DNA from: an uncultured Holophagales bacterium
GTDB taxonomy: Bacteria > Acidobacteriota > Thermoanaerobaculia > Multivoradales > UBA5704
Direction of reading: 5' to 3'
Length of the DNA: 64,000 bases
Assembly: GCA_963842525.1 (NCBI GenBank)
Contig: CAWJGT010000009.1
Span: 192,001 to 256,000, forward strand
Part shown: piece by piece, positions 3,712 to 49,730 of the stretch
How the letters are laid out: every line of letters begins with the position of its first letter
Position numbering within the stretch: position 1 is the first letter of the stretch
The notes under the pieces: model-generated
Seen by the model: the letters and a program-made list of their open reading frames with translations, nothing else
What the model was told of the DNA's origin: nothing
Databases searched by the model: none
Made by a program: the position numbers and the translations under genes

Positions 3712-3762
3712 GCTCCCTCGGCGGCGAGAATCGAGGGGCTCGAGTGATAGGATGACGAGCCC

Positions 3763-5334
3763 ATGCCGCTGACCCAGTACACGGAGAGTCCGCGCTACCT
3801 GCGTCTGCACGAGGCCGACAACGTGGCCGTCATCGTCAACGACGGAGGCGTTTCGGCTGGCACGGCGTTCGGCGACGGCCTGCGCGTTCGCGACTCGATT
3901 CCGCAATCCCACAAGGTGGCGCTCCGTGCGATCGCCGAGGGCGCGGCAGTGCTGCGTTACGGGCAGGTCATCGGCGCGGCGCGGCGCGCCATCCCCGAAG
4001 GGAGCTGGGTCCAGGAGAGCGACCTCGTCATGCCGACGCCGCCGGCGCTCGACTCGCTGCCGCGGTGCACCGACGTGCCGCCCGACGCTCCGCCCCTCGA
4101 GGGGTACACCTTCGAGGGCTACAAGAACGCCGACGGGAGCGTCGGCACCCGCAACCTCCTCGGCATCACGACGACCGTGCAGTGCGTTACGGGTGTGCTG
4201 GACCACGCCGTCAAGAGGATCCGCGACGAGGTCCTGCCGCGGTACCCGAACGTCGACGACGTGGTCGCCCTGAGCCACGACTTCGGCTGTGGGGTCGCGT
4301 TCGACACGCCCGACGTCGAGATCCCGGTCCGCACGGTGCGCAACCTCGCTCGCAACCCGAACCTGGGCGGCCAAGCCCTGGTCGTCGGCCTGGGATGCGA
4401 GATGTTGCAGCCCGCGCAGATCATCGCCGATACCGCCGAGCAAGATGCTGGAGGTAGCGGCCTCGATCTTCAGGAACCCTGGCTCTACCGGCTTCAGGAT
4501 TCCCACCACGGCTTCCGCGAGATGATCGAGCAGATCATGGCACTGGCCGAGCGGCGCCTGCAGGAGCTCGACCAGCGGCGGCGCGAGACCTGCCCGGCCT
4601 CCGCCCTGGTACTGGGAATGCAATGTGGTGGCAGCGATGCCTTCTCCGGCATCACGGCGAACCCGGCCCTCGGCTTCGCCTCCGACTTGCTGGTGCGCGC
4701 CGGCGCGACAGTGATGTTCTCCGAGGTCACCGAGGTCCGCGACGCCGTGCACCTGCTCAGCGCCCGCGCCAAGGATGAGGAGGTGGCGCAGGCCCTGATC
4801 CGCGAGATGGACTGGTACGACCGCTACCTGGAGCGTGGCCACAGTGACCGCAGCGCGAACACCTCGCCGGGCAATAAGGCCGGCGGCCTGTCCAACATCG
4901 TGGAGAAGGCACTCGGCGCCACCGCCAAGTCCGGCCGATCGGCGATCAGCGGCGTGATCGGCCCGGGCGAACGCGCACAGAGGAAGGGTCTACTGTTCTG
5001 CGCCACCCCGGCCGGCGACTTCGTCTGCGGCACGCTGCAACTGGCTGCCGGCATGAACCTCCACGTGTTCACCACCGGGCGTGGCACGCCCTACGGACTG
5101 GCGATGGCGCCGGTGATCAAGGTCAGCACTCGCACCGAGCTCGCCCAGCGCTGGCCCGACCTGATCGACGTCGACGCGGGCCGGATCGCCAGCGGCCGCA
5201 GCACCGTCGAGGAGATCGGCTGGGAGCTGTTCCATTACTACCTCGACGTCGCTAGCGGGCGGAAGAAGACCTGGACCGAAGTGCACCGGATCCACAACGC
5301 CCTGGCGCTCTTCAACCCGGCGCCGCTTACCTGA
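3763..5334 (+). CDS. garD: Galactarate dehydratase (UxaA/GarD family)
   Basis: N-terminal SAF domain; [28 protein letters not shown] and [10 protein letters not shown] motifs; ends FNPAPLT. Confidence 0.92.
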
Positions 5335-5535
5335 GTCTCGCTCGACCTTTCCCGCCGACCAGGGCGAGACGGCGGTCGATCACCTCCCCGATGGGTCCAA
5401 AGAGTGGGATGATGAAGTCCTGGCTGTTCTTCGGGTCGGCCACCTTCCAGACCCTCTCGCCGTTCAATGAGATGACATCCTCGGCGCGGATTCCCGAGGC
5501 TTCCCCCGGTCGGCACATCGAGGCCAGTATCGGGG
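5327..5535 (-). pseudogene. Tyrosine recombinase/integrase fragment
   Basis: [19 protein letters not shown] (box I Arg motif) followed by PKN...IIPL (Lys hairpin); rest of the gene is absent. Confidence 0.55.
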
Positions 5536-5552
5536 AGTAGACGTCTGCAGCC

Positions 5553-5688
5553 TGCTATGCCAGAAGATGTAGCGCAGGATCTCGCCCTCGTTGCCCTGCT
5601 GGCCGGTGGCGACTCCTGCCACGACGATGCTCTGGGCGTCGATCATCTTTCCCATGACGCCGCCGCTGCTGTTGCGAAGAGGACATTC
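5553..5688 (-). pseudogene. Diverged fragment of the L-lactate permease 3' region
   Basis: [21 protein letters not shown]...EGEILRY matches 11623-11744, with substitutions and an internal deletion. Confidence 0.8.
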
Positions 5689-5755
5689 AGCTTGGCCTTC
5701 TGCATCGAGTAGAATGTCGAGAACCTGAGGGCCTGGCCCAGGAAGGAGCGCAGCT

Positions 5756-5920
5756 ATGAAGAAGATCGTCAAGAAGCTGACCCTAAATCGCGAGACCGTC
5801 CGCCAGCTCAATCTCAGGGAGGTGACCAGGATTGCCGGCGGCGCTGATCAGACGAATGAGCCCTTCTGCGTCTCGAACGCCGTGACCTGTGGCGAGGTCC
5901 AGTGCCTCGCGGGCGAATAG
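5756..5920 (+). CDS. Lanthipeptide-like RiPP precursor (54 aa, not in the ORF track)
   Basis: [29 protein letters not shown]|[25 protein letters not shown]; AAGGAG RBS; KKLxLxxET leader, double Gly, 3 Cys and 3 Ser/Thr in the core. Confidence 0.75.
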
Positions 5921-7045: not shown

Positions 7046-7453
7046 TCATCCTTGGCGCGGGCGCTGAGCAGGTGCACGGCGTCGCGGCTGCGTGAGACAA
7101 CAGACGTCGCATCGTCTCGGGCTCACGCTCAATCGCTTGAAGCAACGCGCGAGCGGTGCATCGGGAGTGCTGCGACGCTGTTCCCAATCCCGCAGGGTGC
7201 TGATGGGCAGCCTGAAGGCTTCAGCGAACTCGGCCTGTGTCATGCCGAGGCGCTGCCGCAACGCCTTCACGGGGGAGACCCGGCGCATCTTCGCCAACGT
7301 CTCCGGATCGAGCGGCTGGGCATCGGGATCGGAGAGGGCCGCCGCCAGCACCTCCTCGTCCGTCATTGCGTTCACTCGTATCCAGTCGGTCTCGCCGCGA
7401 GGCAGCGCCTCACCAAGCTTCACGGTCACCCGCGTAGTACCGGTCTTGCTCAT
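7046..7453 (-). CDS. BrnA-like/XRE HTH antitoxin, frameshifted near the C-terminus
   Basis: TDW..MTDEE..AAALSDPDAQP, then HTH LGMTQAEFAEAFRLPISTLRDWEQ; the tail ARALLQAIEREPE is in another frame. Confidence 0.8.
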   Translation of the reverse strand: MSKTGTTRVTVKLGEALPRGETDWIRVNAMTDEEVLAAALSDPDAQPLDPETLAKMRRVSPVKALRQRLGMTQAEFAEAFRLPISTLRDWEQRRSTPDAPLARCFKRLSVSPRRCDVCCLTQPRRRAPAQRPRQG

Positions 7454-7680
7454 GTCGTGTAGCCCTCCGGGCGGAGATGATGCGGCACGTCCTGTCACCG
7501 CGCAGAGTCGTGACGACGAACAGGATATTGCCAGCCGCCATACCGATGATCCGTATCCGCTCTTCTCCGTACTCAAACCGAGTGTCGATCTCTTCGAGCC
7601 GGTTTGGGTCCTCAATCGCTGCGATGGAGTCCACGAAGTCGATGCCGTGCCTGCGTCGATTCTCGGCAGCCTTCGCGGCA
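7410..7680 (-). pseudogene. BrnT family toxin lacking its N-terminus, joined in frame to an ATPase fragment
   Basis: KAAENRRRHGIDF...EERIRIIG...RIISARRAT motif. Confidence 0.75.
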
Positions 7681-8330
7681 AATTTTGGAGAAAACGGGAT
7701 GAAGTGGAGGCCCGGCTCGCCGGCCAGTGCGCCGTCGGCCGTGTTGTCCACCAACTCCAGGATCCCTCCTGCGCCCGCGGCTTGGCCACCTGCGAAGCGC
7801 ACCACGCGCACGACGATGGTCTGCCGCACATCTCCGGTTTTTTCTTCGATCGCTTTCAGATTGGAGCCGGCCTCGCGGATGTGCCCGCAGTAGTTGCTCT
7901 TCAAGAAACGCTCCTGATCGAAGGACAGGAGCGCATCCGCCATCGAGAGGAGCCCATACTGCTCGGCCGGCTGGCCCTTCTCCTCCACGGCGATGAAGAT
8001 GCTGGTGACTTTTTCGGCCGTAAGCATGTCGATGATCCCTGGGACGAAGATCTGCTCGCGCGCACACAGAGGGAATCTCGATGAGAGCTGGTCTAGGCTG
8101 TTGAACAAGAGCGTGACCTTCGCGTTGGGGTCGCCATGCTTCATCCGGTGGATGCTCATGAAGACGCGATGGAAAAACTCTTCGGCGGTAATGTACCCTG
8201 GGGGATAAAACAAGATTTCCAGCCTATCCTTGTCCTCTGGCTGCCGCAGACTGCCGTCGAATTTAAGCTCTTGGCCGCGCTCGACGAAGCGGTAGTCGTA
8301 GGTCAGGCTCACCCGCCGGTCGTGGTAGTC
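7681..8330 (-). pseudogene. C-terminal fragment of a RecA/KaiC-like ATPase
   Basis: VTLLFNSLDQL...VTSIFI...LLSMADALLSF...IVVRVVR resembles a KaiC/RAD55 C-terminal half; no Walker A. Confidence 0.45.
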
Positions 8331-8696
8331 GCTCAGGGCGGCGAGACGCGGTTCGAACGGGTGGGTGCCCCAGGACGACGACCGCGGAGTCGACGTCGCC
8401 CGGCCCGAACCACCCGCCGCCCAGCGGCCGGTGAAGGACCGCCGTGTCGAGGCCATCGAGATGCCGCGCAACGCCGGCTTCCAGGTCGGCGGCCTGGACA
8501 CGTCGGCACCAACCCCGCGACGCGCTCCTCGGTGGTCACGGCCGCGAGGGAGAGGGCTGCCAGGAGCAGCAGGCTGACCGCCAGGCCGCGCCGCTGCCTC
8601 CGATTTCGCCAGTCGAGGATCCAGATCATGGAGGAATCATAGACCAGAGGAGAGGGGGCCGGGATTGATAGACTGATCCCACCGAGAGGAGGGACT

Positions 8697-11114: not shown

Positions 11115-11480
11115 ATGACAAGAACGCACGAAAAAGTAAGGTACCCACCTGAAGGTAAGCCTGAAGCGCTGACGCCGGTGACCGCGGCGGCCGGCGTCGA
11201 GCAGGCATTCAAGATGCTGGAGGGACGCTGGAAACTGCTGATCCTGTTCCACCTGTTTGGCGGCAAGGTGTTGCGGTTCTCGGAGTTGGAGCGCGCCCTA
11301 CCTGCGATTTCGCAGAAGATGCTCATCCAGCAACTGCGCCAGATGGAGTCAGACGGAATCGTGCGGCGTATAGTTCATCACCAGGTGCCGCCGAAGGTGG
11401 AATACGGTCTGACTGATTGGGGCCAAGCCTTGTGCCCGGCGCTGGACGCCTTGCTGAAGTGGGCAGCGATGCGCGAGTGA
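11115..11480 (+). CDS. HxlR-family regulator (copy 2)
   Basis: Protein identical to 6537-6902. Confidence 0.9.
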
Positions 11481-11536
11481 GGTCTGGCGTGGGACGGCAT
11501 GGGTAATGTGACGAAATAAAATTATAGCAGCATCAC

Positions 11537-13237
11537 TTATTGCAACGCCATCGCCGGGATCATCCACGGGAAGACATAGGCCTGAAGGAAGACGAGGACG
11601 CCGACCAGGGCGGCGAGCGCGATGCTGTGCCAGAAGACGTAGCGCAGGATCTCGCCCTCTTTGCCGTGCTGGCCGGTGGCGACGCCTGCCACGACGATGC
11701 TCTGGGCGTCGATCATCTTTCCCATGACGCCGCCGGTGCTGTTGGCGGCACAGGCCAGGATGGGGCTCAGACCCCAGCCGTTCGGCGCTGATCCGCTGGA
11801 GGCCCCCGAAGAGGACATTCGATGAGGTGTCGCTGCCGGTGAGCGCCACCCCGAGCCAGCCCAGCAGCGGCGAGAAGAACGGGAAGAGCACTCCGGTCGA
11901 CGCAAAGGCGAGCCCCATCGTCGCGTCCAGGCCGGCATAGCGGGTCGCGAATCCCAGGGCCAGCATGGCGGCAATCGTCAAGAGCGACCACTGCACCCGC
12001 CAGAGCGTCCGTCCGAGGATCTTCCCGAGCTCGGCGAGCGAGAACCCGAGGAGGAGACCGCTCACGATTCCGGTCAGCAGGAGGCCCGTCCCCGTGGCGG
12101 AGAGCCAGTTGAAGGTGTAGACCGCGGCCTCCGGCGTCGGCTCCTTGACCACCGGCGGCATCTTCACGACCGCTTTGTCGAGCCCGGGGACGGGGATGTC
12201 GAGGACCGAGATCCCGTGCAGGAAGTTCTCATGCCCCTCGGCGCCGCCGTTCAAAAAGCTCTTGACGCCGGGTAGCCCCAGAGGAAGACGAAGACGGAGA
12301 GGAGGAGCCAGGGCATCGAGGGCCTTGAACGCCGTCTTCGGGCTGTGCTCGGGCCGCGCCGCCGCCTCGGCCGCGCGCTCCTCGACCGACTCGTGCGCGA
12401 AGCTCCACGTCGTCTTCGGCTGCCAGAAGCGAAGGAGGACGAGCAGCGACAGGATCGAGACGATCGCGCCCGCGATGTCGACCAGCCAGGGGCCGTGAAT
12501 AGTTGCTGACGAGGAACTGGGTGACGCCGAAGGTGACGCCGGCCGTGAGGCAGGCGGGCCACACCTCGCGCATCGCCTTGCCGTCCGGCCATCGCCCAGA
12601 CCATCCAGAACGGGACGAGGACCGAGAAGAACGGAAGCTGCCGCCCGGCCATCGCGCTGAGAGCGCGTCGTCCGGGAGGCCGGTGACCTGCGCGAGCGTG
12701 ATGATCGGCGTGCCGAGCGCGCCGAAGGCGACCGGCGCCGTGTTGCCGATCAGCGCGAGCCCCGCCGCCTGGAGCGGCTTGAAGCCGAGCCCGATGAGCA
12801 TCGCGCCGCAGATGGCGACCGGCGTGCCGAAGCCGGCCGCGCCCTCGATGAACGCGCCGAAGCTGAAGCGCGATCAGCAGCAGCCTGGATGCGCCGGTCG
12901 CTCGCGAGGCCCGCGATCGTCTGCTTCAGGACCTCGAACTCGCCCGACTTGACGGTGACGTCGTAGACGAAGATCGCGCTCGAGCGACGATCCAGCCGAT
13001 CGGCAGGAGGCCGAAGGCGGCGCCGTCGGCAGCGGCGGCGAGCGCGAGCTGCGCCGGCATGCCGTAGACGAGGATGGCGATCGCGAGCGCCGTGGCGAGC
13101 CCGAGGAGCGCGGCCCAGTGCGCCCGCACGTGGAAGAAAGCGAGGAGCCCGAGGAGGACGACGACGGGAATGGCGGCAACCAGCGCCGACGCGAGAAGGC
13201 TGCCGTTGACGGGCGAGTACACCTGCGTCCAGATCAT
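11537..13237 (-). CDS. lctP: L-lactate permease (multiple frameshifts)
   Basis: [37 protein letters not shown] and [13 protein letters not shown] distributed across frames. Confidence 0.85.
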
Positions 13238-13403
13238 TGCGCTGTTCTCGTCGAGCTTCCAGTCCAGGCCGATTCTAGATCGATTGGGGCACGTACCGCC
13301 TGGTCGAGAGCTCGAAAGCGACGTCGGCGAGGGGGATCGGCTAAATCTTCTTCGCGCCGGTCCCTTCCTCGAAAGCATGATGGACCTCCCGCAAACAGCG
13401 TAT

Positions 13404-16412: not shown

Positions 16413-16591
16413 GCCTCCATGGAAGATGGGGTGACGATATCAGGGGACAGGGGTCCTGGGGGGCCGTTCCCGGCGGGGGAGAAGGAGGAGGCGAACGCGT
16501 CCCTCAGCTACGAGCTTGAGTCCAGGTGGGGCCTTGCCAGCCGAGGGAACTAGTCATATAACTAGTCTGTTGGGTCATCAGGGAGGTGCCT

Positions 16592-16867
16592 ATGGCTGTA
16601 GATCAGTCCGCAAAGCGGTGGCCGGTACAGGACGCGAAGGCGCGCTTCAGCGAGTTGCTGGAGGCGAGCCTCAACGAAGGTCCGCAGATCGTCACCCGGC
16701 GAGGTGTAGAGACCGCTGTTCTGGTTCCCTTCGAGGAGTGGAGCCGGCTCCAGAGCTCGGCGCGGCCAACGCTCAAGGAGCTCCTCCTCGCCGAGGCGCC
16801 GCGAGCCGAGATCCCGGTCCCCCCGCGCCGCCGGTGGCGTCGGCGGACGCCCGCGGCGCTCGAGTAG
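16592..16867 (+). CDS. Phd/YefM antitoxin
   Basis: WPVQDAKARFSELL...GPQIVTRRG; GGAGG RBS. Confidence 0.88.
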   Translation: MAVDQSAKRWPVQDAKARFSELLEASLNEGPQIVTRRGVETAVLVPFEEWSRLQSSARPTLKELLLAEAPRAEIPVPPRRRWRRRTPAALE

Positions 16868-16872
16868 GGCTC

Positions 16873-17049
16873 ATGTATCTCCTCGACACCAACGTCATCT
16901 CGGAGCTGAGGCGACCCCGGCCCCACGGAGCCGTGGTCGCCTGGCTTGAAGGAGTTGCGGACAACGACCTTCACCTGTCCGCCGTCACCTTGGGCGAGCT
17001 ACAGGCCGGGGTCGAGATCACCCGTGAACGGGACCCGGAGAAGGCCTAG
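16873..17049 (+). pseudogene. vapC: Truncated VapC toxin
   Basis: MYLLDTNVISEL...TLGELQAG stops after 58 aa. Confidence 0.8.
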
Positions 17050-17212
17050 GCGCGTCTGCTCGCTCCCTCGTGAGCGCCGGGAGCCGCGAACGCCGCAGGG
17101 CCGTCACAGAAGGGACTGCAACTTGTCACCGCGAAACGCGGCGGGAAGGCGCTTTTCCGCTTTCTCTCCACGGCCGGACCGGGTAAGATCCCACCTGGAA
17201 GGGAAGGAATTC

Positions 17213-17879
17213 ATGGAACGACATCTGGATCACGACCTCGATCGCATCCGGCAGATGCTGCTCAAGATGGGTGGCATGGTCGAGGGTATGGTCGCCAAGG
17301 CGACCCAGTCCCTGCTCGACCGTGAACAATGCGCTGTGCACCGAGGTGATCGACGGCGACCGCGAGATCGACCAGCTCGAGATCGAGATCGACGAAGCCT
17401 GCCACAGCATCCTCGGCCGCAAGCAGCCGACGGCGGTCGACCTGCGCTTCCTGGTCGCGGTGATGAAGATCAACAGCGACCTCGAACGGATCGGCGACTC
17501 GGCCGTCAACATCGCCCAGTCGGCCGAGCAGCTCAACGAGCAGCCGATTCTCAAGCCCTATATCGACCTGCCGCACATGTCAACGCTGGTGCAGGGCATG
17601 GTGCGCCGGAGCCTCGACGCCTTCGTGCAGCGGGACGCCAAGATGGCGGTCGAGGTCTGCCAGGGCGACGACGAGGTGGACGGTCTCTACAAGCAGCTCT
17701 TCCGCGAGCTGCTGACCTACATGATCGAAGATCCCAAGACGGTCAGCCGGGCGCTCCACCTCCTGCTCATCTCGCGCAACCTGGAGCGTATCGCGGACCA
17801 CGCGACCAACATCGCCGAGGACGTCATCTTCTATGTCGAAGGGAGAGACATCCGCCACTCCCTGGGCGTGGCGAGCTGA
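17213..17879 (+). CDS. phoU: Phosphate regulator PhoU (one frameshift near 17325)
   Basis: QPTAVDLR, DLERIGD and NLERIADHATNIAE motifs. Confidence 0.92.
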
Positions 17880-18370
17880 CGGAGTTGAAGGTCCTCACCC
17901 TTTGCACGGGCAACTCGGCGCGCAGCATCCTCGCCGAGCACCTCCTGCGCAAGGCTGGCAGCAGGCGCTTCGAGACCTGGAGCGCCGGCTCCCAGCCCAA
18001 GGGCGAGGTCCACCCCGTGACCTTGCAGGTGCTCCGGGACTACAAGATGGATGCGAGCGACGCCCGCAGCAAGTCCTGGGAGGAGCTCAGGGACGTCGAT
18101 TTCGACTTCGTGATCACGGTCTGTGACAACGCCCGCGAGAGCTGTCCCCTCTGGCTGGGGAAAGGCCATCCCATCATGGCTCACTGGGGCGTGCCCGACC
18201 CGGCCGCCGTGGACGGCTCGCCGGAGGAGCAGCTCCAGGCCTTCCGGCAGGCCGCCCGCATCCTCAGCCGTCGCATCGAGCTCTTCTGCAACCTGCCCTT
18301 CGACAAGCTGGACCGCCTGCGCCTGGAGGAGTCCCTCCACGACATCGGCAGCCGCGGCGCCGATCTCTAG
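17876..18370 (+). CDS. arsC: Arsenate reductase, LMW-PTPase family
   Basis: CTGNSARS P-loop, VCDNARESCP redox Cys pair, HWGVPDP; start (CTG/TTG) uncertain. Confidence 0.82.
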   Translation: MTELKVLTLCTGNSARSILAEHLLRKAGSRRFETWSAGSQPKGEVHPVTLQVLRDYKMDASDARSKSWEELRDVDFDFVITVCDNARESCPLWLGKGHPIMAHWGVPDPAAVDGSPEEQLQAFRQAARILSRRIELFCNLPFDKLDRLRLEESLHDIGSRGADL

Positions 18371-18459
18371 CACAGCCGCTCCGCCCAGGCTGGGGGGATC
18401 TGCGGCTCAAAATGCCGAGCCGGCCGATGTATGCGGCGAATGGCGCTATACTGCCGCTC

Positions 18460-18831
18460 ATGAGAGCTCAGGAGCACGAGCAGGAAACCCGCCGCATCGC
18501 CGAGCATCTCCATGAGCTGATCCGGATTCAGAAACGCTCGCAACGCTCCATCGAGCAGGAGCTCGGGCTGGGAAGCGCCATCCTGAGCAAGATGCTCAAC
18601 GGCACGATCCGCCTCCAGTTCAGTCATGTCCTGATGATCCTGTCCGCCCTCGGGGTTCCGCCGGGCCAGTTCTTCCGCACCGTCTTCCCGCAGAAGGGGC
18701 ATGACCATCCGTCTCTGATCAAGCTGCGCGAGCTGCATGGCGAGGTCCAGGAGCAGGATTCGCCGGAGTTCGACGACCGGGTTCGGCGTTCGCTGCTCCG
18801 CCTTCTCGGAGAGCTACGGGACGAAGCGTAG
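18460..18831 (+). CDS. XRE-like HTH regulator
   Basis: SQRSIEQELGLGSAILSKMLNG...ILSALGVPPGQFF; paralog of 21696-22028. Confidence 0.8.
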   Translation: MRAQEHEQETRRIAEHLHELIRIQKRSQRSIEQELGLGSAILSKMLNGTIRLQFSHVLMILSALGVPPGQFFRTVFPQKGHDHPSLIKLRELHGEVQEQDSPEFDDRVRRSLLRLLGELRDEA

Positions 18832-20190
18832 CCCGGGCTGGTTCTCCAGCCGCTTCAGAAAGGACACGATCTGCCGGACCAGCTCCGCCGTCGCCGCCCG
18901 TTGACGACAGGCGTCGCGCAGGTAGCGGACCGCCCGCAGCGCTTCGCGCTCCACTCCGAGATCGCGGAAGATTTCCAAGGCCTCTTCGGCCAGGGTCTCG
19001 ACTTCCGCGGCCTTACCCCGTCGGAGCAGGACGGCCGCCAGCTCCAGGCCGAGCATCGCTGCGAGATATTCTCGATCACGAGCGAGGAATTCCTTTTTGA
19101 CCTCGGAGAAGACTTCCTCGGCGCGGCGAAGCTTGCCCAGGCCGGCGAAGATCTTTCCCTCCACCCCGCGCAGCTTCAGAAGGTTCAGAGGATCTCCCGC
19201 GAATGCCTGGCGCAGGCCGCTCTCGAGGAGGAGTCGACGTGCCTCGCGATAATCCCCGGAGTCTACAAGGGCATGCAGCAGCGCTTCCTGGCTGGTCGCA
19301 ACCAGCTTGGGATCCCGCTGCGGGTTGATCGCCTCAAGTCCCTGAAGGAGCACCTCCACCGCTTCCTGGGGCCGGCCATCGCGGTGGAGCGCAATGCCCT
19401 TCTTGATGAGAGCACGGCCGGCGAGGTGGGTCTCGCCCAGTGCGAGGTAATGGCGGTGTAGCTGGCCGAGGAGATCGAGCGTGTCGCTGAGCTTGCGCTC
19501 ATCCATCCGCAGGGACGCTTCGACGTCGAGGAGGCGCCCCAGGATCATCGGGTCGCGGGTGCCCTGTTCCAGCACCTCGGCAGCCTCGGCGAGAGCGTTC
19601 TCGGCCTCCTTGTATTGGTGGATGAGCCGCTCTGCATTGGCCAGCTCGATCAGGGTCCGGGCGTGCAGGTCGGCCCACTGCGCCGGCGTGTGGTGTCCCC
19701 GATCCATCTCCTCCTCTCTACCGATGCGTTGGACCGCCGAGCTGGCCGCCCAGACAAGGAACCGCATCCGTTCGGGATCGCGGTAGCGAAGCTCGAAGCT
19801 CAGCGCCAGGATCGCTTCGATCCATGCCCAGCCGTGGACCTCCTCGGCGAGGTCGTCGAAGATCTCCACCGAGCCTTCGAATGGCCTCTCCCGCGCCCGT
19901 GCCATCAGCCGCTCGAGATCGGCCTTGTCCTCGGCCCACTGCGTCGCATGACGCTCCAAGCCAGCCAGGGCCCGGTCGAGCACCGCGTCATATTCGTCTG
20001 CAACCTCGGCGGGAGCATCCGGAGGCACGGGCTCGTCCTCATCGAGCATCGGCCCGTATGGCGCGAGCTTCCGCCGGCACTCGGCACAGCGGCTCAGGAT
20101 CTGCCGGAGGAAATCCTGGAACGCCGGGCCCTCCAGCCGGCCCGAGACGAAGAGACGGACATCGGAGTCGGTCACATGGGTATGCGGCAT
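18814..20190 (-). CDS. TPR-like protein with an N-terminal CxxC (Zn-finger-like) motif
   Basis: LSRCAECRRKL followed by TPR-like helical repeats; paralog of 46336-47646. Confidence 0.8.
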   Translation of the reverse strand: MPHTHVTDSDVRLFVSGRLEGPAFQDFLRQILSRCAECRRKLAPYGPMLDEDEPVPPDAPAEVADEYDAVLDRALAGLERHATQWAEDKADLERLMARARERPFEGSVEIFDDLAEEVHGWAWIEAILALSFELRYRDPERMRFLVWAASSAVQRIGREEEMDRGHHTPAQWADLHARTLIELANAERLIHQYKEAENALAEAAEVLEQGTRDPMILGRLLDVEASLRMDERKLSDTLDLLGQLHRHYLALGETHLAGRALIKKGIALHRDGRPQEAVEVLLQGLEAINPQRDPKLVATSQEALLHALVDSGDYREARRLLLESGLRQAFAGDPLNLLKLRGVEGKIFAGLGKLRRAEEVFSEVKKEFLARDREYLAAMLGLELAAVLLRRGKAAEVETLAEEALEIFRDLGVEREALRAVRYLRDACRQRAATAELVRQIVSFLKRLENQPGLRFVP

Positions 20191-20313
20191 GCGCGGATCT
20201 CCCTCCCTTGGATTCCATCGAGTGCTTCGGTATTGTCTCACACCTTTCGGAGTAATGTTGCTGGAAAAGAGCACCCGGAGGCCGGTTGTACGCCTCCGGG
20301 CTGGGTGCGAAGG

Positions 20314-20694
20314 TCAGCCGTTGGGGTCGATCATGCCGCACTGGTCCGAGCTGGCCGAGGTCCCTGTTATGCAGCGGCCGTCGGGGTCGATCGATAAGCA
20401 TTGGTCCGAGCTGCCCGAGGTCCCTGCGATGCAGCGGCCGTCAGGGTCGATCGATGAGCACTGGTCTGAGTTGGCCGAGGCCCCTGCGATGCAGCGGCCG
20501 TCGGGGTCGATCATGCCGCATTGGTCCGAGCTGGCCGAGTCCGTCGGCTGCCAAGCCAGGACCGCTGTGAGCCATTCCCAGATGCGGCCGAAGCCGGTCG
20601 AGCCCCGCTCGGCCGCGTAGGCAGGTGTCACCGGGCCGGCGAGCGCCAACCCGAAAGCCAGAGCCGCCGCGAGCCATGTTCCTCTCCGAATCAT
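20314..20694 (-). CDS. Secreted multi-core DPxG peptide precursor
   Basis: AAGGAGG RBS; signal peptide ending AYA; four SDQCxxIDP[DN]G cores on 60-bp repeats. Confidence 0.8.
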   Translation of the reverse strand: MIRRGTWLAAALAFGLALAGPVTPAYAAERGSTGFGRIWEWLTAVLAWQPTDSASSDQCGMIDPDGRCIAGASANSDQCSSIDPDGRCIAGTSGSSDQCLSIDPDGRCITGTSASSDQCGMIDPNG

Positions 20695-21024
20695 CGTGCC
20701 CTCCTTCAGACCACGGAGCCCGCCAGGCCGGCATTGGCCGGGACGGTCCGCGGTCCCTACGAGCGATGCCTCCAAGTTTGGACCGGCTTGCCGCAGTTTC
20801 GTCGCCAGTTGGTGAAATTTCTCCGGGTCCACTCTCCGCAATGGAGGTGGCGCTCCGAAGCAATCTAGGTACGTCCAGAAGCGATTGCAAATTCCGCCGC
20901 GGACCGCGGCAAAGCAGGAACCTGTGCAAGGTTTCGCCGCAGCGGCCGCGCGCTTTGCCGTAGAAACTGCGGATTTTCGAATTCTGCTTGACAGCCCCAT
21001 TTTCGCGGCGTAGCCTGCCGCATC

Positions 21025-21436
21025 ATGACTGGCCACGGTCAAGGCGGATCACTTAGCCGTTCCTTCACGAGAGACCACTATCGGCGCCTCGCTTTCCGAA
21101 TTGCGGAACAGAGACAGGCGCGCGGCTGGAAGCAGCGGGAAGCTCAGTCAGCGGTCCGGGATCGAGCCCGACCGGCTCTCCCGGCTGGAGCGGGGAGCCC
21201 GAATCCGGATCGACGAGCTGGTCAACCTCAGCCGTGCGTTCGGGTTGGGAGTCGACGAGCTTCTCTTCGAGACCGCATCTTCCAGCGGCGACGAGGTCGT
21301 GGGGCTGGCGCGCGAGATCCGGAGCGTCGTCTCGCCGGAGGACCTGGCCGCGGTGAGCCGGGTCTTCCGTGCGTTGCTGGCGGGCTTTCTATCTCTTCAT
21401 GCGTCGCAGGACGCCGCATCGGGAGGTCGCGAGTGA
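21025..21436 (+). CDS. XRE HTH regulator (frameshift near 21140)
   Basis: RQARGWKQRE joins LSQRSGIEPDRLSRLERG...FGLGVDELL. Confidence 0.7.
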
Positions 21437-21699
21437 GCCGCAGGCCTTCGGACGTCCTGGCGCCGGACGAGCTCGAAGAGCTGACGCGGTTGCTCGCTGA
21501 GCTGCGGGGGCTCCGCGCGCGGTGGGAAGGGCTCCTGGCTCGACTGCACCGGGCCAGGAGATCTTCGGTGCGCGCCCTGGTCCGAGACCGCCTGCTGTGC
21601 GTTCTCCACGACTGCATTGCGCCGGCCCTTCGAGACGTCGACTCGATCGAAGCGGCGGCTCATTTCCGCGCTCCCCAGAGTGACGAGGAAACGATATGA
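21433..21699 (+). CDS. Small helical hypothetical protein
   Basis: GTGA/ATGA overlaps with both neighbouring HTH genes; LLCVLHDC motif. Confidence 0.6.
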   Translation: MSRRPSDVLAPDELEELTRLLAELRGLRARWEGLLARLHRARRSSVRALVRDRLLCVLHDCIAPALRDVDSIEAAAHFRAPQSDEETI

Positions 21700-22028
21700 A
21701 TATCGAAGACGAGGTGCGTCGGGCCGCCCGGCTGCTCGAGACCGTGATGCAGGCGGCCGGGCTCACCCGCAAAGACCTCGAACAGCGTCTGGATGCCGGT
21801 CCCGGCTATGTCAGCCAGGTCCTCACAGGGAGAATCGAGCTGAAGCTCCGCCACATCCTCGCCGTTTTGCGGGCGCTCGACGTAGAGCCTGCAATCTTTT
21901 TTCAGGCGCTCTATCCAGATGCAGGGGTTGCGAGCCGCCCGGCGCGCCTTCTCCTCTCACGAGAGGATCTGGAGAGTCTGCTCCGCAGGGCTGTCCGCGA
22001 GGTGCTTGCGGAGCGCAGACTTTTCTAG
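21696..22028 (+). CDS. XRE-like HTH regulator
   Basis: LTRKDLEQRLDAGPGYVSQVLTGRIELK...LDVEPAIFF. Confidence 0.8.
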   Translation: MNIEDEVRRAARLLETVMQAAGLTRKDLEQRLDAGPGYVSQVLTGRIELKLRHILAVLRALDVEPAIFFQALYPDAGVASRPARLLLSREDLESLLRRAVREVLAERRLF

Positions 22029-22045
22029 CGCGATCAGATCCAACC

Positions 22046-22075
22046 AAAAAAAGAGGCCGCTGTCGCCAGCGGCCT
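22046..22075 (-). terminator. Intrinsic terminator after the porin gene
   Basis: AGGCCGCTG/CAGCGGCCT stem with a T-run on the minus strand. Confidence 0.7.
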
Positions 22076-22101
22076 GCAGGACTCCGGGGCTGATCGCAGC
22101 C

Positions 22102-23452
22102 CTAGAAGATGATCTGGTACTGGAGGCGGGCCTCCTTGTCGGTGGTCCGCGTCGCGATGTTTTCGAGCTTCCCGGTAGTCGGCCTGGAGCTTGTGGTTGT
22201 GCTTGTTGAAGAAGTAGCCCAGGGCGAGGCCGCGCTCCTCGCGCTCGTTGTCGTCCACGTCGCTGTTGGGGTCGAGCTCGCCGAACCGGAGTGCGATTTC
22301 GAGCTTCTGCGGGATGACGAAGTAGCCGGCCTGTATGTTGAAACCCTCGTCGTCGAAATCGGAGAGGTTGTTGCTGCGGTCGTGCTCGCGCTGGAAGATC
22401 TCGCCGAAGACGGAGAACCGCTTGAATTTGAAGACCACGTCGCCGCCTACGATGGTGCGGTCGTCGGCATGGGCGGGTGTCGAGCCGGCGGCGGCGACCG
22501 GGAACTCGTTCGACTCGTACTGGCCGGCGATGGCGAAGAGCGGCTTCCCGGTGCTGTCGAAATCGCCCTCCGAATACTTCACATCGCCGAACGGCTGCCA
22601 GGTGACGCGGGCGTTCATCTGCAGGTCGTCGTTGTCGTTGCGCGACACGGTCCGGCCGTTGCCGTTGAACACGCCGACGCGCCAGTCGAGCTTGCTGCTG
22701 TTGGGGGTTCCCCAGAGCTGGATGCCGATGTCGCGTCCGCGGGCGAAGGTGTCGGAGACGGTCGAGCGGTCGACGAACTGCTGGCTGCCGGACGAGGTGA
22801 GCTGCTGGCGTCCGAACGGCACTTTGTACTGACCCGCCTTGAGCATGAAGGTCTTTTTGCCCTTGGTGAAGTCGTAGTTGACGGCGGCGTCTTCGAGCGG
22901 GTTGGCGGTGTCGGGCCAGTTGAGCTGCAGCTCGTAGGTGAGATCCTTGGTGTAGGCCCAGCCCTCGAACTTGGTCTTCATGCGGCGGATGCGGAAGGAG
23001 CTGCGGTCCGGATCGTTCGCCGGCTCGACCTCGCGGTTCTCTTGGGTGAAGCGGAACTGCAGCCGGTTGGAGATGATGAGCTCGGCCTGCTTCGAGGCGA
23101 TGGTGGTCTTGCCGTCCTTCCAGCCGACCGTGAAGGCCGGCGTGGTGCTCGGCGTGGGCCGGTCATAGCCGGGCAGGTTGTGCTTGAAGAAGTAGAGGTC
23201 GGCGGCCGTCTCGTTCTCGGCCACGACGGTCTCGCCGTTGGCTCCCTGGCCGACCAGGGTGAGGGAGATGCCCATGTCCCCGCTCTGCGACCAGAGCTTG
23301 TACTTCTCGGGGGTGTTGAACACGTAGATGCGGCCGTCCTTCTCGACCTCCTGGTAATACAAACCCGTCACCTGTGCCAGAGCGACGGAGCTGGCCAGCA
23401 GCGCGAGCATGAGCACGAGCAGGCCGGCTCTCAGCGTAGTGGATCTGCGCAT
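22102..23452 (-). CDS. Phosphate-selective porin (OprO/OprP-like), C-terminal frameshift
   Basis: Signal peptide; FRIRR, GQYKVPFG and GRDIG motifs; corrected end ARLQYQIIF*; divergent from pstS. Confidence 0.85.
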
Positions 23453-23540
23453 TCCAAGCTCTCCTTTGATTGCAGTTTGGTGATGCACTGTTCGAGTCGA
23501 AGTCAGGATAGGAGGGCCAGCCTGCAACGCTGCGACGGGT

Positions 23541-23611
23541 CTGTGACAGCCCTGCGACAGCGACCTCTCTTCCGGGAACAAAAGGCCCTTGTCACATCGC
23601 TGTCACAGCAC
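23541..23611. promoter_or_regulatory. Divergent Pho-box-like 11-bp direct repeats
   Basis: TGTCACATCGC-TGTCACAGCAC on + (23590-23611) and CTGTCGCAGGG-CTGTCACAG on - (23541-23560), between the porin gene and pstS. Confidence 0.65.
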
Positions 23612-23718
23612 GGTAGACGCGCTGCCAAACCCCTCTGCCAGAGTCTCCTCGACCGGAACGGAGAGACGCTCCGTCCGCCCCCTTTGAAAGCTCGTCAACT
23701 CAAGATAAGGAGATCGAG

Positions 23719-24708
23719 ATGAGGCAGAGTCTCAAGAGTCTCAAGTGTCTCAAGATTACTCCGCTCGTCGTGGCGGCAGTTCTGTGTGCGACCAGCTCCT
23801 TCGCCCAGGCCGTCAAGGTCGATGCGGCGATTCCGGCGTACAGCAAGACCAGCGGCGTGTCCGGCAACGTGAGCTCGGTCGGCTCGGACACGCTCAACAA
23901 CCTGATGACGCTGTGGGCGGAGGGCTACAAGAAGGAGTACCCCAACGTCCGCATCCAGATCGAGGGCAAAGGCTCCACGACGGCGCCGCCGGCGCTGATC
24001 CAGGGCACCTCGCAGCTCGGTCCCATGAGCCGTCCGATGAAGGCGGAGGAGATCGACGCGTTCGAGAAGAAATATGGCTACAAGCCGACGGCCATCCGTG
24101 TCGCCGTGGACGGCCTCGCGGTGTTCGTCAACAAGGACAACCCGATCAAGGGACTGACGGTCCAGCAGGTGGACGGGATCTTCTCGAAGGGCCGCTCCTG
24201 CGGCGGCAAGGCGATCGCTACCTGGGGCCAGCTCGGCGTGACCGACCCCGCGTGGGCGAAGCAGCCGATCAGCCTCTACGGCCGCAACTCGGCCTCCGGA
24301 ACCTACGGCTACTTCAAGGAGCATGCGCTCTGCAAGGGCGACTACAAGGACACCGTCAAGGAGCAGCCGGGCTCGGCTTCGGTGGTGCAGGGGATCAGCG
24401 AGGACAAGTTCTCCATTGGTTACAGCGGCGTGGGCTACAAGACCTCGGGTGTGCGGGCGGTGCCACTGGCCAAGGCGGGAGCGCAGTTCATCGACGATTC
24501 CCCGGAGAACATCCTTTCCGGCAAGTACCCGATTGCGCGCTTCCTCTACGTCTACGTCAACAAGGCCCCCAACCGGCCGCTGGACCCGCTGGTGCGGGAG
24601 CTCGTCAAGTATGTGCTCTCGCAGCAGGGCCAGCAGACCGTGGTCAAGGACGGCTTCATTCCGCTGCCTGCGAAGATCGTGCGGGAAGAGCTGGCCAAGC
24701 TCCAGTAA
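23719..24708 (+). CDS. pstS: Phosphate ABC transporter substrate-binding protein
   Basis: GSDT, GKGS, MSR, RNSASGT and YPIAR motifs. Confidence 0.93.
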
Positions 24709-33289: not shown

Positions 33290-33741
33290 TCAACCGAGCA
33301 GATATTGATCGTCGTACGGAATCCCCTGTCTTTCAAGAAGCTCGATGAGCTCCTCGCGGAAAGATACTCGCCGATGATGCTCCTCCTGGTTCCGGATGTA
33401 ACGCCGGACCTTCTCGGCCAAGGAGGCACTGACGGAGAAGGCGCCATACCCGTCCTGCCAATCAAAAGACCCAGATGAGTCTGGCCTCTCATTGAGCCAT
33501 TTTGACGACTTGCCCTTGATCTTCTGCACCGCCAGGGCGACTGCCATGGCTGGCTTGAGCTTGACAAGAAGGTGGACATGGTCCGGCATGCCACCAATCT
33601 CCAACAGAATCCCCCCTTCTCCGCGGAGAATGCCGCCCATGTATTGGTACAAGGGCTCTCTGGTTTCGGGCTTAATCAGGGGAAAGCGATTCTTCGTCGA
33701 GAACACGATATGAAAGAGGAGGTTGGCAAAGGTCGAGGCAT
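33290..33741 (-). CDS. tnpA: IS200/IS605-type Y1 (HUH) transposase, REP-associated
   Basis: HIVFSTKNR, DHVHLL, WQDGYGAFSVS and YIRNQEEHH; the ATG at 33741 is one base out of frame. Confidence 0.9.
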
Positions 33742-33883
33742 AGTTTTGAGTGATCTCCAAAATTATTGGCAAGCCCGAGAGCACGCCTACGCCCTTTCAG
33801 GGCTTGAGGGATTGGTGGCTGCCACCCTGGCGCTGAAGCGCCAGGCTTTACGCCCGGGCCCCTTCGGGGCCTTGTTTCCCGGC

Positions 33884-44976: not shown

Positions 44977-45252
44977 GTGGCCCAGATCACGGTCGGCATT
45001 CGCCAGTTGAAGGAGCAGCTCAGCCACTACATCGAGCAGGTCAAGACTGGCTCCACGGTCGTCATCACCGAGCGGGGGACTCCCGTCGGCCGGATCGTTC
45101 CCGAGGCGCCTTCCCTCGACGAACGTCTCCAGCAGCTTGAGCAGGCGAAGCTTCTCGCCTGGAGCGGCCGGAAGCTTTGCCCCACGGTCCCCACGGTGCG
45201 TGTGCGGGGGCCGAGGACGGTCTCCGAGCTCCTGCTCGAAGACCGGGAATGA
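44977..45252 (+). CDS. Phd/YefM antitoxin
   Basis: VGIRQLKEQLSHY...VITERGTPVGRIVP. Confidence 0.88.
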   Translation: MAQITVGIRQLKEQLSHYIEQVKTGSTVVITERGTPVGRIVPEAPSLDERLQQLEQAKLLAWSGRKLCPTVPTVRVRGPRTVSELLLEDRE

Positions 45253-46106: not shown

Positions 46107-46223
46107 ATGATCGGCTTGCTCGCCAGTCTGTTCGGCGGTCTGTGGGAGGCCCTTGCCAGTCTCTCCCAGGCCACAGAAGCGGGATCGGGAGACCGGGGCC
46201 AGCAGATGGATCCGGATGGGTAG
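46107..46223 (+). CDS. 38-aa single-core DPxG peptide (not in the ORF track)
   Basis: AAAGGAG RBS; MIGLLASLFGGLWEALASLSQATEAGSGDRGQQMDPDG*; same terminal motif and Trp helix as 20314-20694. Confidence 0.75.
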   Translation: MIGLLASLFGGLWEALASLSQATEAGSGDRGQQMDPDG

Positions 46224-46335
46224 GTGACATGCCTTTGGTGCCGGCGCTGCTCCCTGCGGCGCCGGCATCCCTGGTCTCCAGGGCCTCTCTTGCGGTAAAA
46301 TGTCGCCGATAGACGGCACGCGAGAGGAGAGATCG

Positions 46336-47646
46336 ATGGCGGACATCCATCTGACCCGGGAGATGCTGCGCGCCGTGCTCCGCGGCGAGTTGCCAGCGCG
46401 GATCATCTCCCAGATCGGCCTGCAACACCTGATGAGTCTCTGCCCTTCCTGCCGGCAGGAGGTCGAGGCGTTCCGGCACGAGCAGACGGCCGGGGCTCCG
46501 GCCGCCTACAGCCGGACGTTCGAAGTCCTCCCGGCCCTTCTCGAGGACCAGGTGACGCGGCTGGAGGGCGAGCAACGGCAGGCCCGGCGGGATCTCTCCG
46601 AGCTGCTCCGGCTCCCGCGCGAGCGGCGGGCCGGCCGCGTGGAGCGGGCACGAGGCCGCTTTCGCAGCGCGGCCCTCGTGCGCCTTTTGATCGAGGAAAG
46701 CCAGAAGCACATTCCCAAGGGGCCGGAGGAGGCTCTCCATCTCGCCGAGCTGGCCCGGACGGTGGCCAATGCCAATCCCCGCATGCCGGAATTCTTTGAC
46801 CTCACTGTGCTTGCGACCGCGCACATCGCGAACGCCTGCCGGGTCGGCGAGACGCCGCGCAAGGCCGAAGAGCACTTCCTTTATGCACGGCAGGTCATCC
46901 AGCAGCACGGTGTCACCGATCCCGAGGTCCTCGCCCGTGTGGACGACCTTGAAGGCTCGCTGCGCAAGGACCAGCGCCTGTTCGAGAAGGCCGAGGAGCT
47001 TCTGACGCGCGCCGCGATGCTCTACCGCCTGGTGCACGCCCGCGTCCTCATCAAGCTTGGGACGGTCTATGACCTGCGCGGCGATTTTCAGGCTGCGATC
47101 GAGACGACGCAGTCGGCTCTAGACATGCTGCCGCCGGAGAGCGAGCCACGGCTGTATCTGTGTGGCCGCTACAATCTGGCGTGCCAACTCTTCTCGGCAG
47201 GCCGACCCGAGGAGGCGGACGAGATCCTGCGGGCGGATGAGGATCTCTACCGGCGTGACCCGGACCCGTGGACGCAGATCCGGCTCACCTGGCTGCGCGG
47301 CAACCTCGCCGAGGCGCGGGGGGAGGCCGGGCCGGCCGAGCAGGCCTACCGCGGCGCGCGGGACGGCTTCATTGCCCAGGGATGCGGTTACGATGCCGCG
47401 CTCGTTTCGATGGATCTGGCGCTCCTCTCTCTGCGCCAGGGCCGCACCGACAGCGTCCGGCGGCTCGCTGAGGAGATGGTCCCGATCCTGGCGGCCCAGG
47501 ACGTGCACCGCGAGGCGCTCGCCGCCTTGGTGCTTTTCCAGGACGCCGCACGCCGGAACGAGCTCACGATCGGCAAGGTCCGCGAGATCGCGGCCTCTCT
47601 GCGGGAGAGTCGAGGGAGCCGGGCGCGGCCGGCGGTGTCATCCTGA
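46336..47646 (+). CDS. TPR-like protein with an N-terminal HxxxxCxxC motif
   Basis: QHLMSLCPSCRQEV followed by TPR-like repeats; paralog of 18814-20190. Confidence 0.82.
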   Translation: MADIHLTREMLRAVLRGELPARIISQIGLQHLMSLCPSCRQEVEAFRHEQTAGAPAAYSRTFEVLPALLEDQVTRLEGEQRQARRDLSELLRLPRERRAGRVERARGRFRSAALVRLLIEESQKHIPKGPEEALHLAELARTVANANPRMPEFFDLTVLATAHIANACRVGETPRKAEEHFLYARQVIQQHGVTDPEVLARVDDLEGSLRKDQRLFEKAEELLTRAAMLYRLVHARVLIKLGTVYDLRGDFQAAIETTQSALDMLPPESEPRLYLCGRYNLACQLFSAGRPEEADEILRADEDLYRRDPDPWTQIRLTWLRGNLAEARGEAGPAEQAYRGARDGFIAQGCGYDAALVSMDLALLSLRQGRTDSVRRLAEEMVPILAAQDVHREALAALVLFQDAARRNELTIGKVREIAASLRESRGSRARPAVSS

Positions 47647-48482: not shown

Positions 48483-48714
48483 CTTCGTCTCCTTTCTGGA
48501 GAAAACTCCGGCATCGGGATGATGCCGGAATGTCTGTATCGCGTTCGCTTCTCTCGACTCCCGTTCGTCTTCATGAGCGTGGTAGACTGTTCATATGGAC
48601 TTTGCAAGATCAACTGATGCGGATCATGCACCATAGTGTCCATGGTGTCAACCCCCGTCTCCCATCCTGTCGACCGTATTGGGATAGAATTTCTCCAAGT
48701 CCTGGCAATTGAAG

Positions 48715-49587: not shown

Positions 49588-49730
49588 GAACCGACGACAA
49601 GGAGCGGCGAGGGTTGCCAGAGGTGCCGGAATGTTCCGGAATGTTCGGCTGATGATCCTCTAGAAGGCTCCTCCCTTCTGACGAGCCGCGATAGGCTCGT
49701 CGGGAGACCAATCCCTGAAAGGAGGAGCGC

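Follow-up and report, generated by a model that had tools for sequence, protein, structure and literature searches.

A tandem-repeat peptide gene paired with a TPR protein gene in Acidobacteriota, possibly part of a peptide/TPR/XRE switch

Background

Conjugation of the Bacillus subtilis plasmid pLS20 is controlled by a Rap/Phr*/Rco switch (PMC3814332, PMC7641744), in which the Xre-type repressor Rco is countered by Rap, a tetratricopeptide repeat (TPR) anti-repressor, and Rap is itself switched off by the exported, processed and re-imported peptide Phr* (PMC3814332). Systems of the RRNPP type have been given a five-criterion signature (PMC10075063), exceed 25 pairs per species in Paenibacillus (PMC7425212) and, in the Rap systems of the phages phi3T and phi105, include tandemly duplicated Phr propeptides (PMC11343458). 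Here we describe a gene for a tandem-repeat peptide, P0001, on 64,000 nucleotides of DNA from an uncultured Holophagales bacterium of the Thermoanaerobaculia (Acidobacteriota; GenBank assembly GCA_963842525.1, contig CAWJGT010000009.1, positions 192,001 to 256,000); this whole stretch is referred to below as the window. The gene is followed by a gene for a TPR protein and lies near genes for XRE-type helix-turn-helix (HTH) regulators, an arrangement that recurs in other genomes and may constitute a signalling switch.

Acidobacteriota are abundant in soils and sediments and barely tractable. Our literature searches returned no account of peptide signals encoded by genes of this phylum, and nothing on the present family was retrieved by searches on RRNPP systems in Gram-negatives or Acidobacteria and on combinations of anti-sigma, TPR and XRE proteins. 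Searches on the IDPNG/IDPDG motif or on the gene arrangement likewise gave nothing on the family, in a literature coverage that mostly excludes subscription journals.

The peptide gene and its repeats

P0001 is encoded on the minus strand from 20694 to 20314, stop codon included, and has 126 residues. That this is a real gene is confirmed by the open reading frame (ORF) and its homologues: the frame is supported by the GC content at third codon positions (GC3, 0.83; the first and second positions have 0.57 and 0.65), by an AGGAGG ribosome-binding site 6 nt before the ATG and by homologues that reach an E-value of 1e-29. An earlier note on this DNA, made from the sequence alone, had read 20314..20694 as a precursor with four cysteine-bracketed cores; the coordinates are right, and the strand, which it did not give, is minus. 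Pfam, NCBIfam and PADLOC assign P0001 to no family, Rfam has no match across window positions 17000-24000, and a scan of 18000-22200 for sigma-70 promoters found none.

The sole array detected by Tandem Repeats Finder lies at 20317-20539 (minus strand; period 60, 3.7 copies, 85% matches, score 323) and in the assembled sequence contains four loop units, which together with the translation bears out the four cores of 20 residues, or 60 bp, described earlier. The units, SDQCGMIDPDGRCIAGASAN, SDQCSSIDPDGRCIAGTSGS, SDQCLSIDPDGRCITGTSAS and the terminal SDQCGMIDPNG-stop, are nearly identical and follow the 20-residue consensus SDQC-xx-IDP(D/N)G-RC. Variation within the cores falls on the two residues after the first cysteine, plus a D to N change in the last unit, so the earlier statement, made for the cores, that these two positions account for most of the variation holds there but not for the array as a whole, since the linkers vary too, at unit positions 16 and 18-20. 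Codon differences between units range from 2 of 11 compared to 8 of 20; the lowest value is that between units 1 and 4, and the terminal unit therefore looks like a recent copy. This also explains why P0001 has an odd total of 7 cysteines.

The N-terminus (residues 1-27) looks like an export signal, as the earlier note had proposed, with an RR n-region, a hydrophobic h-region 13 residues long and, behind it, an AYA|AE site; here and throughout the family, signal peptides were called by eye and with a crude rule. Next comes RIWEWLTAVLAW, a Trp-rich stretch that forms a helix at residues 34-46 in the AlphaFold2 model, in which the repeats appear as tiny hairpins along a flexible string (mean predicted local distance difference test score, pLDDT, 63).

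An undescribed peptide family

A word-indexed search yielded 6 relatives of P0001, and a full HMMER scan of 1.84 billion representatives yielded 151 proteins at E<=1e-3. The 155 proteins collected comprise 78 of at most 210 residues, which share a common architecture, and 77 longer than 210 residues. Twelve of the long matches were scanned for known domains and proved to be seven WD40/NHL propellers, one EB module protein and four without a family; as the propellers shared only an SPDG-like motif they were treated as motif-level matches and dropped, and all 77 large proteins are left out of the family counts, which refer to the 78 small members. These are 60-201 residues long and consist of a signal-like N-terminus (export-signal-like in 75 of the 78), a W-x-W/F-L segment and one to five DPxG repeats, most often three, which answers the earlier suggestion that core copy number be compared across homologues. 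The family is undescribed and has no Pfam or NCBIfam model. The ESM Atlas returned only unnamed Acidobacteriota clusters for P0001, and a plasmid collection contained no match.

The DPxG motif, which the earlier note had considered fixed, keeps its Pro and Gly invariant in an alignment of 42 sequences, where W39, D63, C68 and D83 are also kept in at least 90%. Across the 225 repeats of the 78 proteins, the residue before D is I in 156 and mostly L (20), V (16), A (12) or M (11) in the other 69, and x is N in 105, D in 79, S in 18, F in 9, Y in 4 and W in 3. The residue after the motif is Arg in 109 of the 198 non-terminal repeats and non-basic in 79. Calcium-binding repeats of the DxDxDG/EF-hand-like or RTX kind were considered and rejected, as only D-P-x-G is fixed and Pfam gives no match; a WD40/PD40 propeller was rejected as well, the 20-residue period being set against a blade of about 40 residues and the PD40 match (E 0.042) lying below the cut-off.

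Whether a repeat has its first cysteine is closely tied to whether it has its second: of 197 internal repeats, 157 contain the pair, 31 have no cysteine at either site and 9 have a single one (Fisher p 4.5e-27, with relatedness not corrected for). This pattern supports closure of each repeat by its own disulfide, with 6-11 residues between the paired cysteines, and hence a location in an oxidising, extracytoplasmic site; the disulfide-closed loops envisaged in the earlier note are thus probable. The disulfide would nevertheless be dispensable, since 9 of the 78 members have no Cys after residue 25. The same nine, along with the occurrence of F, Y, W and S at x, leave the metal-binding repeat that had been offered as an alternative weakly placed.

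Exactly at DPxG is where 27 of the 78 small members terminate. The terminal repeat lacks both cysteines in 26 of 28 cases, P0001 being one of the two exceptions. The linkers are low-complexity stretches of Ala, Ser, Thr and Gly, and a small-x-small pattern before each unit, tried as a candidate cleavage site, could not be distinguished from the Ala/Ser/Thr-rich composition of the linkers.

A conserved cassette

A genome scan with an alignment of 8 close sequences gave 12 loci (L001 to L012), all in metagenome-assembled genomes (MAGs), from Thermoanaerobaculia, other Acidobacteriota, Pyrinomonadaceae and Eremiobacterota. In six of them (L001, L003 and L006-L009) the family member is of the small form with a signal peptide and a Trp-rich helix, and in all six a gene homologous to the TPR gene of the window follows directly on the same strand (blastp against the 458-residue window protein, E 5e-170 to 9e-42, 33-58% identity). 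Since the genes for a porin, PhoU, a cupin and an Ig-like protein on the flanks of the window have no match in these six TPR-linked loci, the peptide and TPR genes travel as a unit. The synteny is based on the six genome loci and on two pairs in the 64-kb window.

The second of these pairs is a diverged one. A mini peptide gene at 46107..46223 (plus strand; 38 residues from the ATG, 49 from a GTG at 46074) directly precedes a paralogue of the TPR gene at 46336..47646 (plus strand), whose product has the same N-terminus with H5 and CxxC and is 30% identical to the 458-residue protein over 237 residues (E 5e-16). The mini peptide, which corresponds to the 38-residue protein record P0276 from the 1,975,831-bp contig that also encodes P0001, is preceded by an AAGGAG site. 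Besides the hydrophobic segment FGGLWEAL it contains just one core, which ends in DRGQQMDPDG-stop; it resembles P0001 over 17 residues only (E 0.005).

A GC-rich hairpin begins 0-20 nt past the peptide stop codon in 7 of the 8 peptide-TPR spacers, L007 being the exception, with energies of -23 to -36 kcal/mol that lie 2.2 to 5.4 standard deviations (sd) below those of shuffled sequences. Behind P0001 it occupies 20273..20301 (minus strand), starting 12 nt after the stop, with -23.3 kcal/mol against a shuffle mean of -15.6 (sd 2.7); behind the mini peptide it follows the stop directly, at 46239..46267 (plus strand), with -35.9 kcal/mol against -19.6 (sd 3.0). The first of these is followed by CUCUUUUCC and looks like a terminator or attenuator, and it was missed by the terminator rule because its T-run is short. 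A layout of this kind, giving an abundant short transcript with read-through into a partner gene, is common for precursor-peptide genes.

The third element of the arrangement is formed by XRE-type HTH genes, three of which surround the P0001 pair. One, at 18412..18831 (plus strand, 139 residues), is convergent with the TPR gene; another, at 21010..21436 (plus strand), is divergent from the peptide gene and split over two frames; and a third, at 21696..22028 (plus strand, 110 residues), is a paralogue of the 139-residue protein. Five of the six loci, all but L009, have a homologue of the 139- and 110-residue proteins whose gene converges on the TPR gene, and in 4 of these the two genes are adjacent; XRE genes adjoin the pair or lie within a few kb in five of six loci and in the window. 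The divergent regulator has homologues in L001 and L003, and L003 additionally carries a distant paralogue of the TPR protein in an operon with the divergent HTH gene (hhalign probability 98.4%). A peptide gene, a hairpin, an anti-sigma-like/TPR gene and, usually, flanking XRE regulators thus make up a conserved cassette, whose range so far is mainly Thermoanaerobaculia and other Acidobacteriota.

The repeat unit also occurs apart from the cassette. L004 (8012-12604), L005 (8045-12844) and, in fragmented form, L002 (7980-12612) encode giant secreted proteins of 1530-1599 residues that are packed with xxIDPNG(K/R) units, in MAGs of Pyrinomonadaceae and of another member of the Acidobacteriota; they have no TPR neighbour and match no Pfam or NCBIfam family. 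A local 9-residue period, DPNGxGxxU, gives these giants a faint resemblance to RTX repeats.

The TPR partner protein

The partner gene (18814..20190, minus strand) lies 123 bp from the peptide gene on the same strand and encodes 458 residues without a signal peptide. Its product matches Pfam TPR_12 (E 1.4e-9, model positions 4-70 of 77); an anti-sigma-like region at the N-terminus, with H5, C35 and C38, is followed by a long helix (residues 61-101) and by a TPR superhelix. In a confident AlphaFold2 model built from 46 sequences (mean pLDDT 89.4), three short helices at the N-terminus lead to a helix of 40 residues and then to the TPR superhelix, which establishes the fold class. In a Foldseek comparison with the Protein Data Bank (PDB), TPR scaffolds that bind peptides ranked highest, LGN/Pins first (template modelling score, TM, up to 0.58), then KLC1, and RapF, the Rap proteins of phages phi3T and phi105 and NprR ranked lower, at TM 0.42-0.45. 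A PDB profile search with the partner found only designed TPRs and ChrR.

The alignment to ChrR covers the N-terminal 75 or so residues of the partner and the anti-sigma domain (5-76) of ChrR with marginal significance (E 0.012), and it places H5 and the C35/C38 CxxC pair in register with ChrR; the anti-sigma domains of RslA and DdvA are also within the 8 matches to this region. All 46 family sequences aligned have both C35 and C38, and at least 90% keep H5. The spacing in the relatives is H-x4-C-x2-C, the window protein having Gln in place of that His. One relative is named zf-HC2 at NCBI, and the Pfam model zf-HC2 is not matched by the partner. The conserved polar residues are N185, R188, S226 and R232.

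The partner family comprises 252 proteins at E<=1e-5 among 8000 candidates scored, and every relative whose name bears a taxon belongs to Thermoanaerobaculia; there are several copies per genome, as some names share one locus-tag prefix. Many Acidobacteriota TPR clusters were found for the partner in the ESM Atlas, and no match in the plasmid and phage collections. An expansion of this order is typical of paired signal-receptor families, and we count it in favour of a signalling role.

A putative peptide/TPR/XRE switch

The synteny of peptide and TPR genes, the second pair, the hairpins, the fold of the partner, the XRE neighbours, the export-signal-like N-termini, the pairing of the cysteines, the many family members that end at DPxG and the agreement with three of the five RRNPP criteria lead us to propose tentatively, by analogy and with somewhat less than even confidence, that P0001 is the exported signal, or pro-signal, of a peptide/TPR/XRE switch that would be like Rap-Phr-Rco without being a member of that family. 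P0001 would be exported through Sec, as its N-terminus suggests, and each C-xx-IDPxG-x-C unit would be closed by a disulfide outside the cytoplasm. The repeats, either intact or cut apart within the small-residue linkers, would serve as the signal of the switch, its specificity set by the two variable residues after the first Cys; the TPR protein would sense the peptide and then control the XRE regulators. The earlier note had suggested that one precursor could release several signal variants, and a multi-copy signal precursor is plausible; the idea gains indirectly from the conserved pairing with TPR and XRE genes, a context that the note had missed.

Several observations weigh against such a switch. 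Neither among the neighbours in the loci nor among the window ORFs is an importer or a processing protease kept beside the cassette, and the host is a diderm, with porin and TonB/ExbBD genes in the window, while RRNPP systems are described for Bacillota (PMC10075063, PMC11343458). With 6-11 residues between the cysteines, the family loops exceed the known linear pheromones in size and in degree of structure. TPRs are generic scaffolds, the best structural matches of the partner are eukaryotic scaffolds rather than Rap or NprR, and no sequence model of Rap, NprR, PlcR or Rgg is matched in Pfam, NCBIfam or the PDB profile search. L009 has no XRE gene nearby, and the divergent XRE gene of the window is apparently frameshifted near 21141, by a true frameshift or a sequence error, the L001 homologue aligning to frame 1 with its residues 5-48 and to frame 2 with its residues 33-131. 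The mini peptide lacks a clear signal peptide and has no homologue outside its own genome in the protein collection. Lastly, L010-L012 encode small proteins with a signal peptide and repeats that have neither the Trp helix nor a TPR neighbour, and the giant IDPNG proteins, likewise without a TPR neighbour, indicate that the unit can work within an unprocessed protein.

A bolder form of the proposal, which we consider rather unlikely as a whole, is that the cassette represents the first family of peptide quorum sensing with a cytoplasmic TPR receptor outside monoderm Bacillota, widespread and multi-paralogous in Acidobacteriota (Thermoanaerobaculia), with several IDPxG loop pheromones per precursor. 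One Sec-exported precursor would then deliver several disulfide-closed loop pheromones, and the receptor, an anti-sigma-like domain with a TPR sensor, would act on separate XRE regulators. If the cassette is a signalling system, peptide communication through TPR receptors would reach beyond monoderms into a phylum of diderms, with structured multi-copy pheromones as a new signal chemistry.

Alternative explanations

The alternative that survives best, although itself somewhat unlikely, is that P0001 is an unprocessed repeat protein of the periplasm or cell surface, with its Trp segment at the membrane and its string of rigid DPxG turn loops binding a ligand of the envelope or from outside, and that the TPR and XRE genes are no more than its regulators or operon neighbours. 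The same IDPxG unit builds the giant proteins of 1530-1599 residues that have no TPR neighbour, the low-complexity Ala/Ser/Thr/Gly linkers are spacer-like, the tiny hairpins on a flexible string in the AlphaFold2 model fit such an arrangement, and no protease or importer is conserved nearby. What it leaves unexplained is why a TPR gene always follows the small Trp-helix form, amid unrelated flanks and in pairs that are 31-58% divergent, why a 38-residue single-core version stands beside a TPR paralogue, and why 27 of the 78 members end exactly at DPxG. If the repeat is structural, the DPxG loop unit would be an undescribed repeat family that spans 38-residue peptides to proteins of 1600 residues.

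An improbable alternative to both the switch and the envelope protein is a secretion-coupled one, in which the TPR protein would bind the precursor before export, perhaps at the Trp helix, and export would free it to act on the XRE regulators. Comparable logic is known from TPR chaperones of type III secretion systems that double as co-activators (IpgC-MxiE, SicA-InvF) and from the exported FlgM. The Trp-rich helix does track the TPR gene: the peptides of all six TPR-linked loci have it, P0001 has it too, and FGGLWEAL represents it in the mini peptide, but the three small relatives without a TPR neighbour lack it; moreover, re-import across two membranes would be unnecessary. Sec substrates, however, usually leave the cytoplasm quickly, the number of repeats and the disulfide loops are left without a role, and the literature searches gave no precedent.

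The earlier note had also listed a multi-core ribosomally synthesised and post-translationally modified peptide (RiPP) modified in trans, and this we regard as very improbable; an ATP-grasp enzyme encoded elsewhere might, for instance, form side-chain esters on Ser/Thr and Asp. The repeated cores are rich in Asp, Ser and Thr, and a search of homologous neighbourhoods for modifying enzymes, as the note had advised, did turn up an ATP-grasp peptide maturase homologue in L001, the closest genome locus, where it belongs to a nested peptide cluster (3241-5805) between the TPR and XRE genes; its match to TIGR04187 (E 1.2e-58) falls short of the curated threshold. This was the only one among the six cassette-bearing loci, so no maturase is conserved across the relatives, and it has a precursor-like ORF of its own directly upstream, ending at about 4585, with a leader of typical kind (..LSVEELAAVAGQG..) and a Cys-rich tail. 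In the window, the note's remark that no modifying enzyme is adjacent stands, as Pfam found none in the 8 neighbouring proteins or in 55 further ORFs, which include no radical SAM, YcaO, lanthipeptide or ATP-grasp enzyme. A Sec signal peptide would also be unusual for a bacterial RiPP.

There is similarly little to recommend a multi-headed protease inhibitor, with the Arg of G-R-C as reactive site, or a Sec-dependent bacteriocin-like antimicrobial array. Multi-domain inhibitor precursors do occur in plants, the Arg that follows DPxG in 109 of 198 non-terminal repeats lies inside the Cys-closed loop, and some cassettes contain peptide cargo (the graspetide cluster in L001, an 8-Cys peptide in L006); against this stand the nine Cys-free members, the 79 of 198 repeats with a non-basic residue after Gly and the lack of likeness to any inhibitor family in Pfam and NCBIfam. 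That P0001 is no gene at all, and only a frame left open by chance across the DNA repeat or opposite an open plus-strand ORF (20189-20620, GC3 0.78), can be dismissed almost entirely in view of dozens of minus-strand relatives with the same architecture and varied repeat numbers, the strong ribosome-binding site, the conserved synteny and the overlap of the plus-strand ORF with the start of the TPR gene.

Surrounding genes

Peptide genes of other kinds are nested in some of the cassettes. In L001 the cluster with the ATP-grasp gene also encodes a DUF6624 protein, and in L006 a gene at 11896-12120 (minus strand) between the TPR and XRE genes encodes a secreted 74-residue peptide with 8 cysteines, for which no family was found and which may be cassette cargo. 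Under the bolder form of the proposal, the cassette may control nested peptide cargo such as the L001 graspetide cluster and this 8-Cys peptide.

Beside the second TPR gene of the window, an AT-rich array of units of about 41 bp (47692-47975) separates this gene from a 139-residue ORF and contains three perfect AAATTTGG-N8-CCAAATTT palindromes, against an expectation of 0 from 100 shuffles; an operator array and a small repeat element are both conceivable. The 139-residue ORF (48063-48482, minus strand) belongs to no known family. Homologues adjoin the cassette in L006 (8372-8752) and in L007 (8669-9049), and another lies some 5 kb from it in L009; the protein may be a further part of the module. 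A 358-residue ORF next to the second module (48709-49785, plus strand) gave weak PADLOC matches to defence proteins of the LmuA and SIR2 types (E 0.0025-0.008).

Farther away, three minus-strand ORFs match different parts of an L-lactate permease model (5464-5811, 11349-12254 and 12926-13378, covering model positions 469-504, 314-462 and 2-72); the permease gene looks broken or rearranged. Toxin-antitoxin-type genes (ParE/Phd, BrnT, Phd) lie at 320-867, 7410-8501, 16586-17049, 44977-45719 and 62355-63058; the Phd genes among them occupy 320-601, 16586-16867, 44977-45252 and 62750-63058, two of them beside a PIN gene. IS200-like and IS110-like transposases are encoded at 33290-33784 and 49731-50747. 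The toxin-antitoxin-type genes and the transposases suggest a plastic chromosomal region.

Comparison with known systems

Eukaryotic multi-copy pro-hormones, such as the yeast alpha-factor and FMRFamide-type precursors, show the same general design as P0001, a signal peptide followed by tandem short units with spacers, most of which have a basic residue directly after the Gly of the unit. They come from another domain of life; P0001 has no dibasic sites, and no processing enzymes were identified among the window ORFs or the neighbours in the loci.

The N-terminus of the partner may be related to the zinc-binding anti-sigma (ZAS) domain of ChrR from Rhodobacter sphaeroides (PDB 2q1z, 2z2s), to whose residues 5-76 it aligns at a marginal E-value with His5 and CxxC in register. 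The spacing differs, the relatives having H-x4-C-x2-C where ZAS proteins have H-x3-C-x2-C and the window protein having Gln at the His site, and the C-terminal part is a cytoplasmic TPR superhelix instead of a membrane span or a cupin. No gene for a sigma factor of the extracytoplasmic function (ECF) type adjoins the cassette, and no match to the sigma-70 family was found among the window ORFs scanned; the neighbours of the partner are XRE-type HTH genes.

With RRNPP(A) systems the cassette shares a TPR protein of receptor size directly beside a gene for a small, here apparently exported, peptide and an expanded family with several paralogues per genome. When set against the published five-criterion signature, the cassette agrees with it in three respects: the receptor has 458 residues in a range of about 250-500, TPR_12 is matched at E 1.4e-9, and the distance of 123 bp is within the -60 to 400 bp of the adjacency rule, which holds in the six loci and in the second module as well. 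P0001, with 126 residues, exceeds the default propeptide size of 10-100, within which the 38-residue mini peptide falls, and its putative Sec signal (RR, 13-residue h-region, AYA|AE) was judged by eye. The receptor differs in showing no sequence homology to Rap, Rgg, NprR, PlcR, PrgX or AimR in Pfam, NCBIfam and PDB profiles, in coming from another phylum and in leaving the HTH to separate proteins.

The phi3T and phi105 systems resemble P0001 in having more than one copy or variant of the putative signal within a single exported, or here apparently exported, precursor, although theirs are described as short linear pheromones cut by extracellular proteases, whereas the units here have 20 residues and would be closed by cysteines.

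It is to the pLS20 switch that the cassette can be compared most fully. Its TPR protein has no sequence homology and only weak structural similarity to Rap (TM 0.42-0.45), and begins with an anti-sigma-like region in place of the 3-helix bundle of Rap. The peptide gene lies upstream of the TPR gene here and downstream in pLS20, and it encodes 126 residues with predicted disulfide loops, in contrast to a pre-pro-peptide of 44 residues from which a short linear peptide is derived. Its host belongs to the diderm Acidobacteriota instead of the Bacillota. In both, a small exported, or here apparently exported, peptide, a TPR protein without a DNA-binding domain and an Xre-type HTH protein are encoded alongside one another, with the peptide and TPR genes as direct neighbours.

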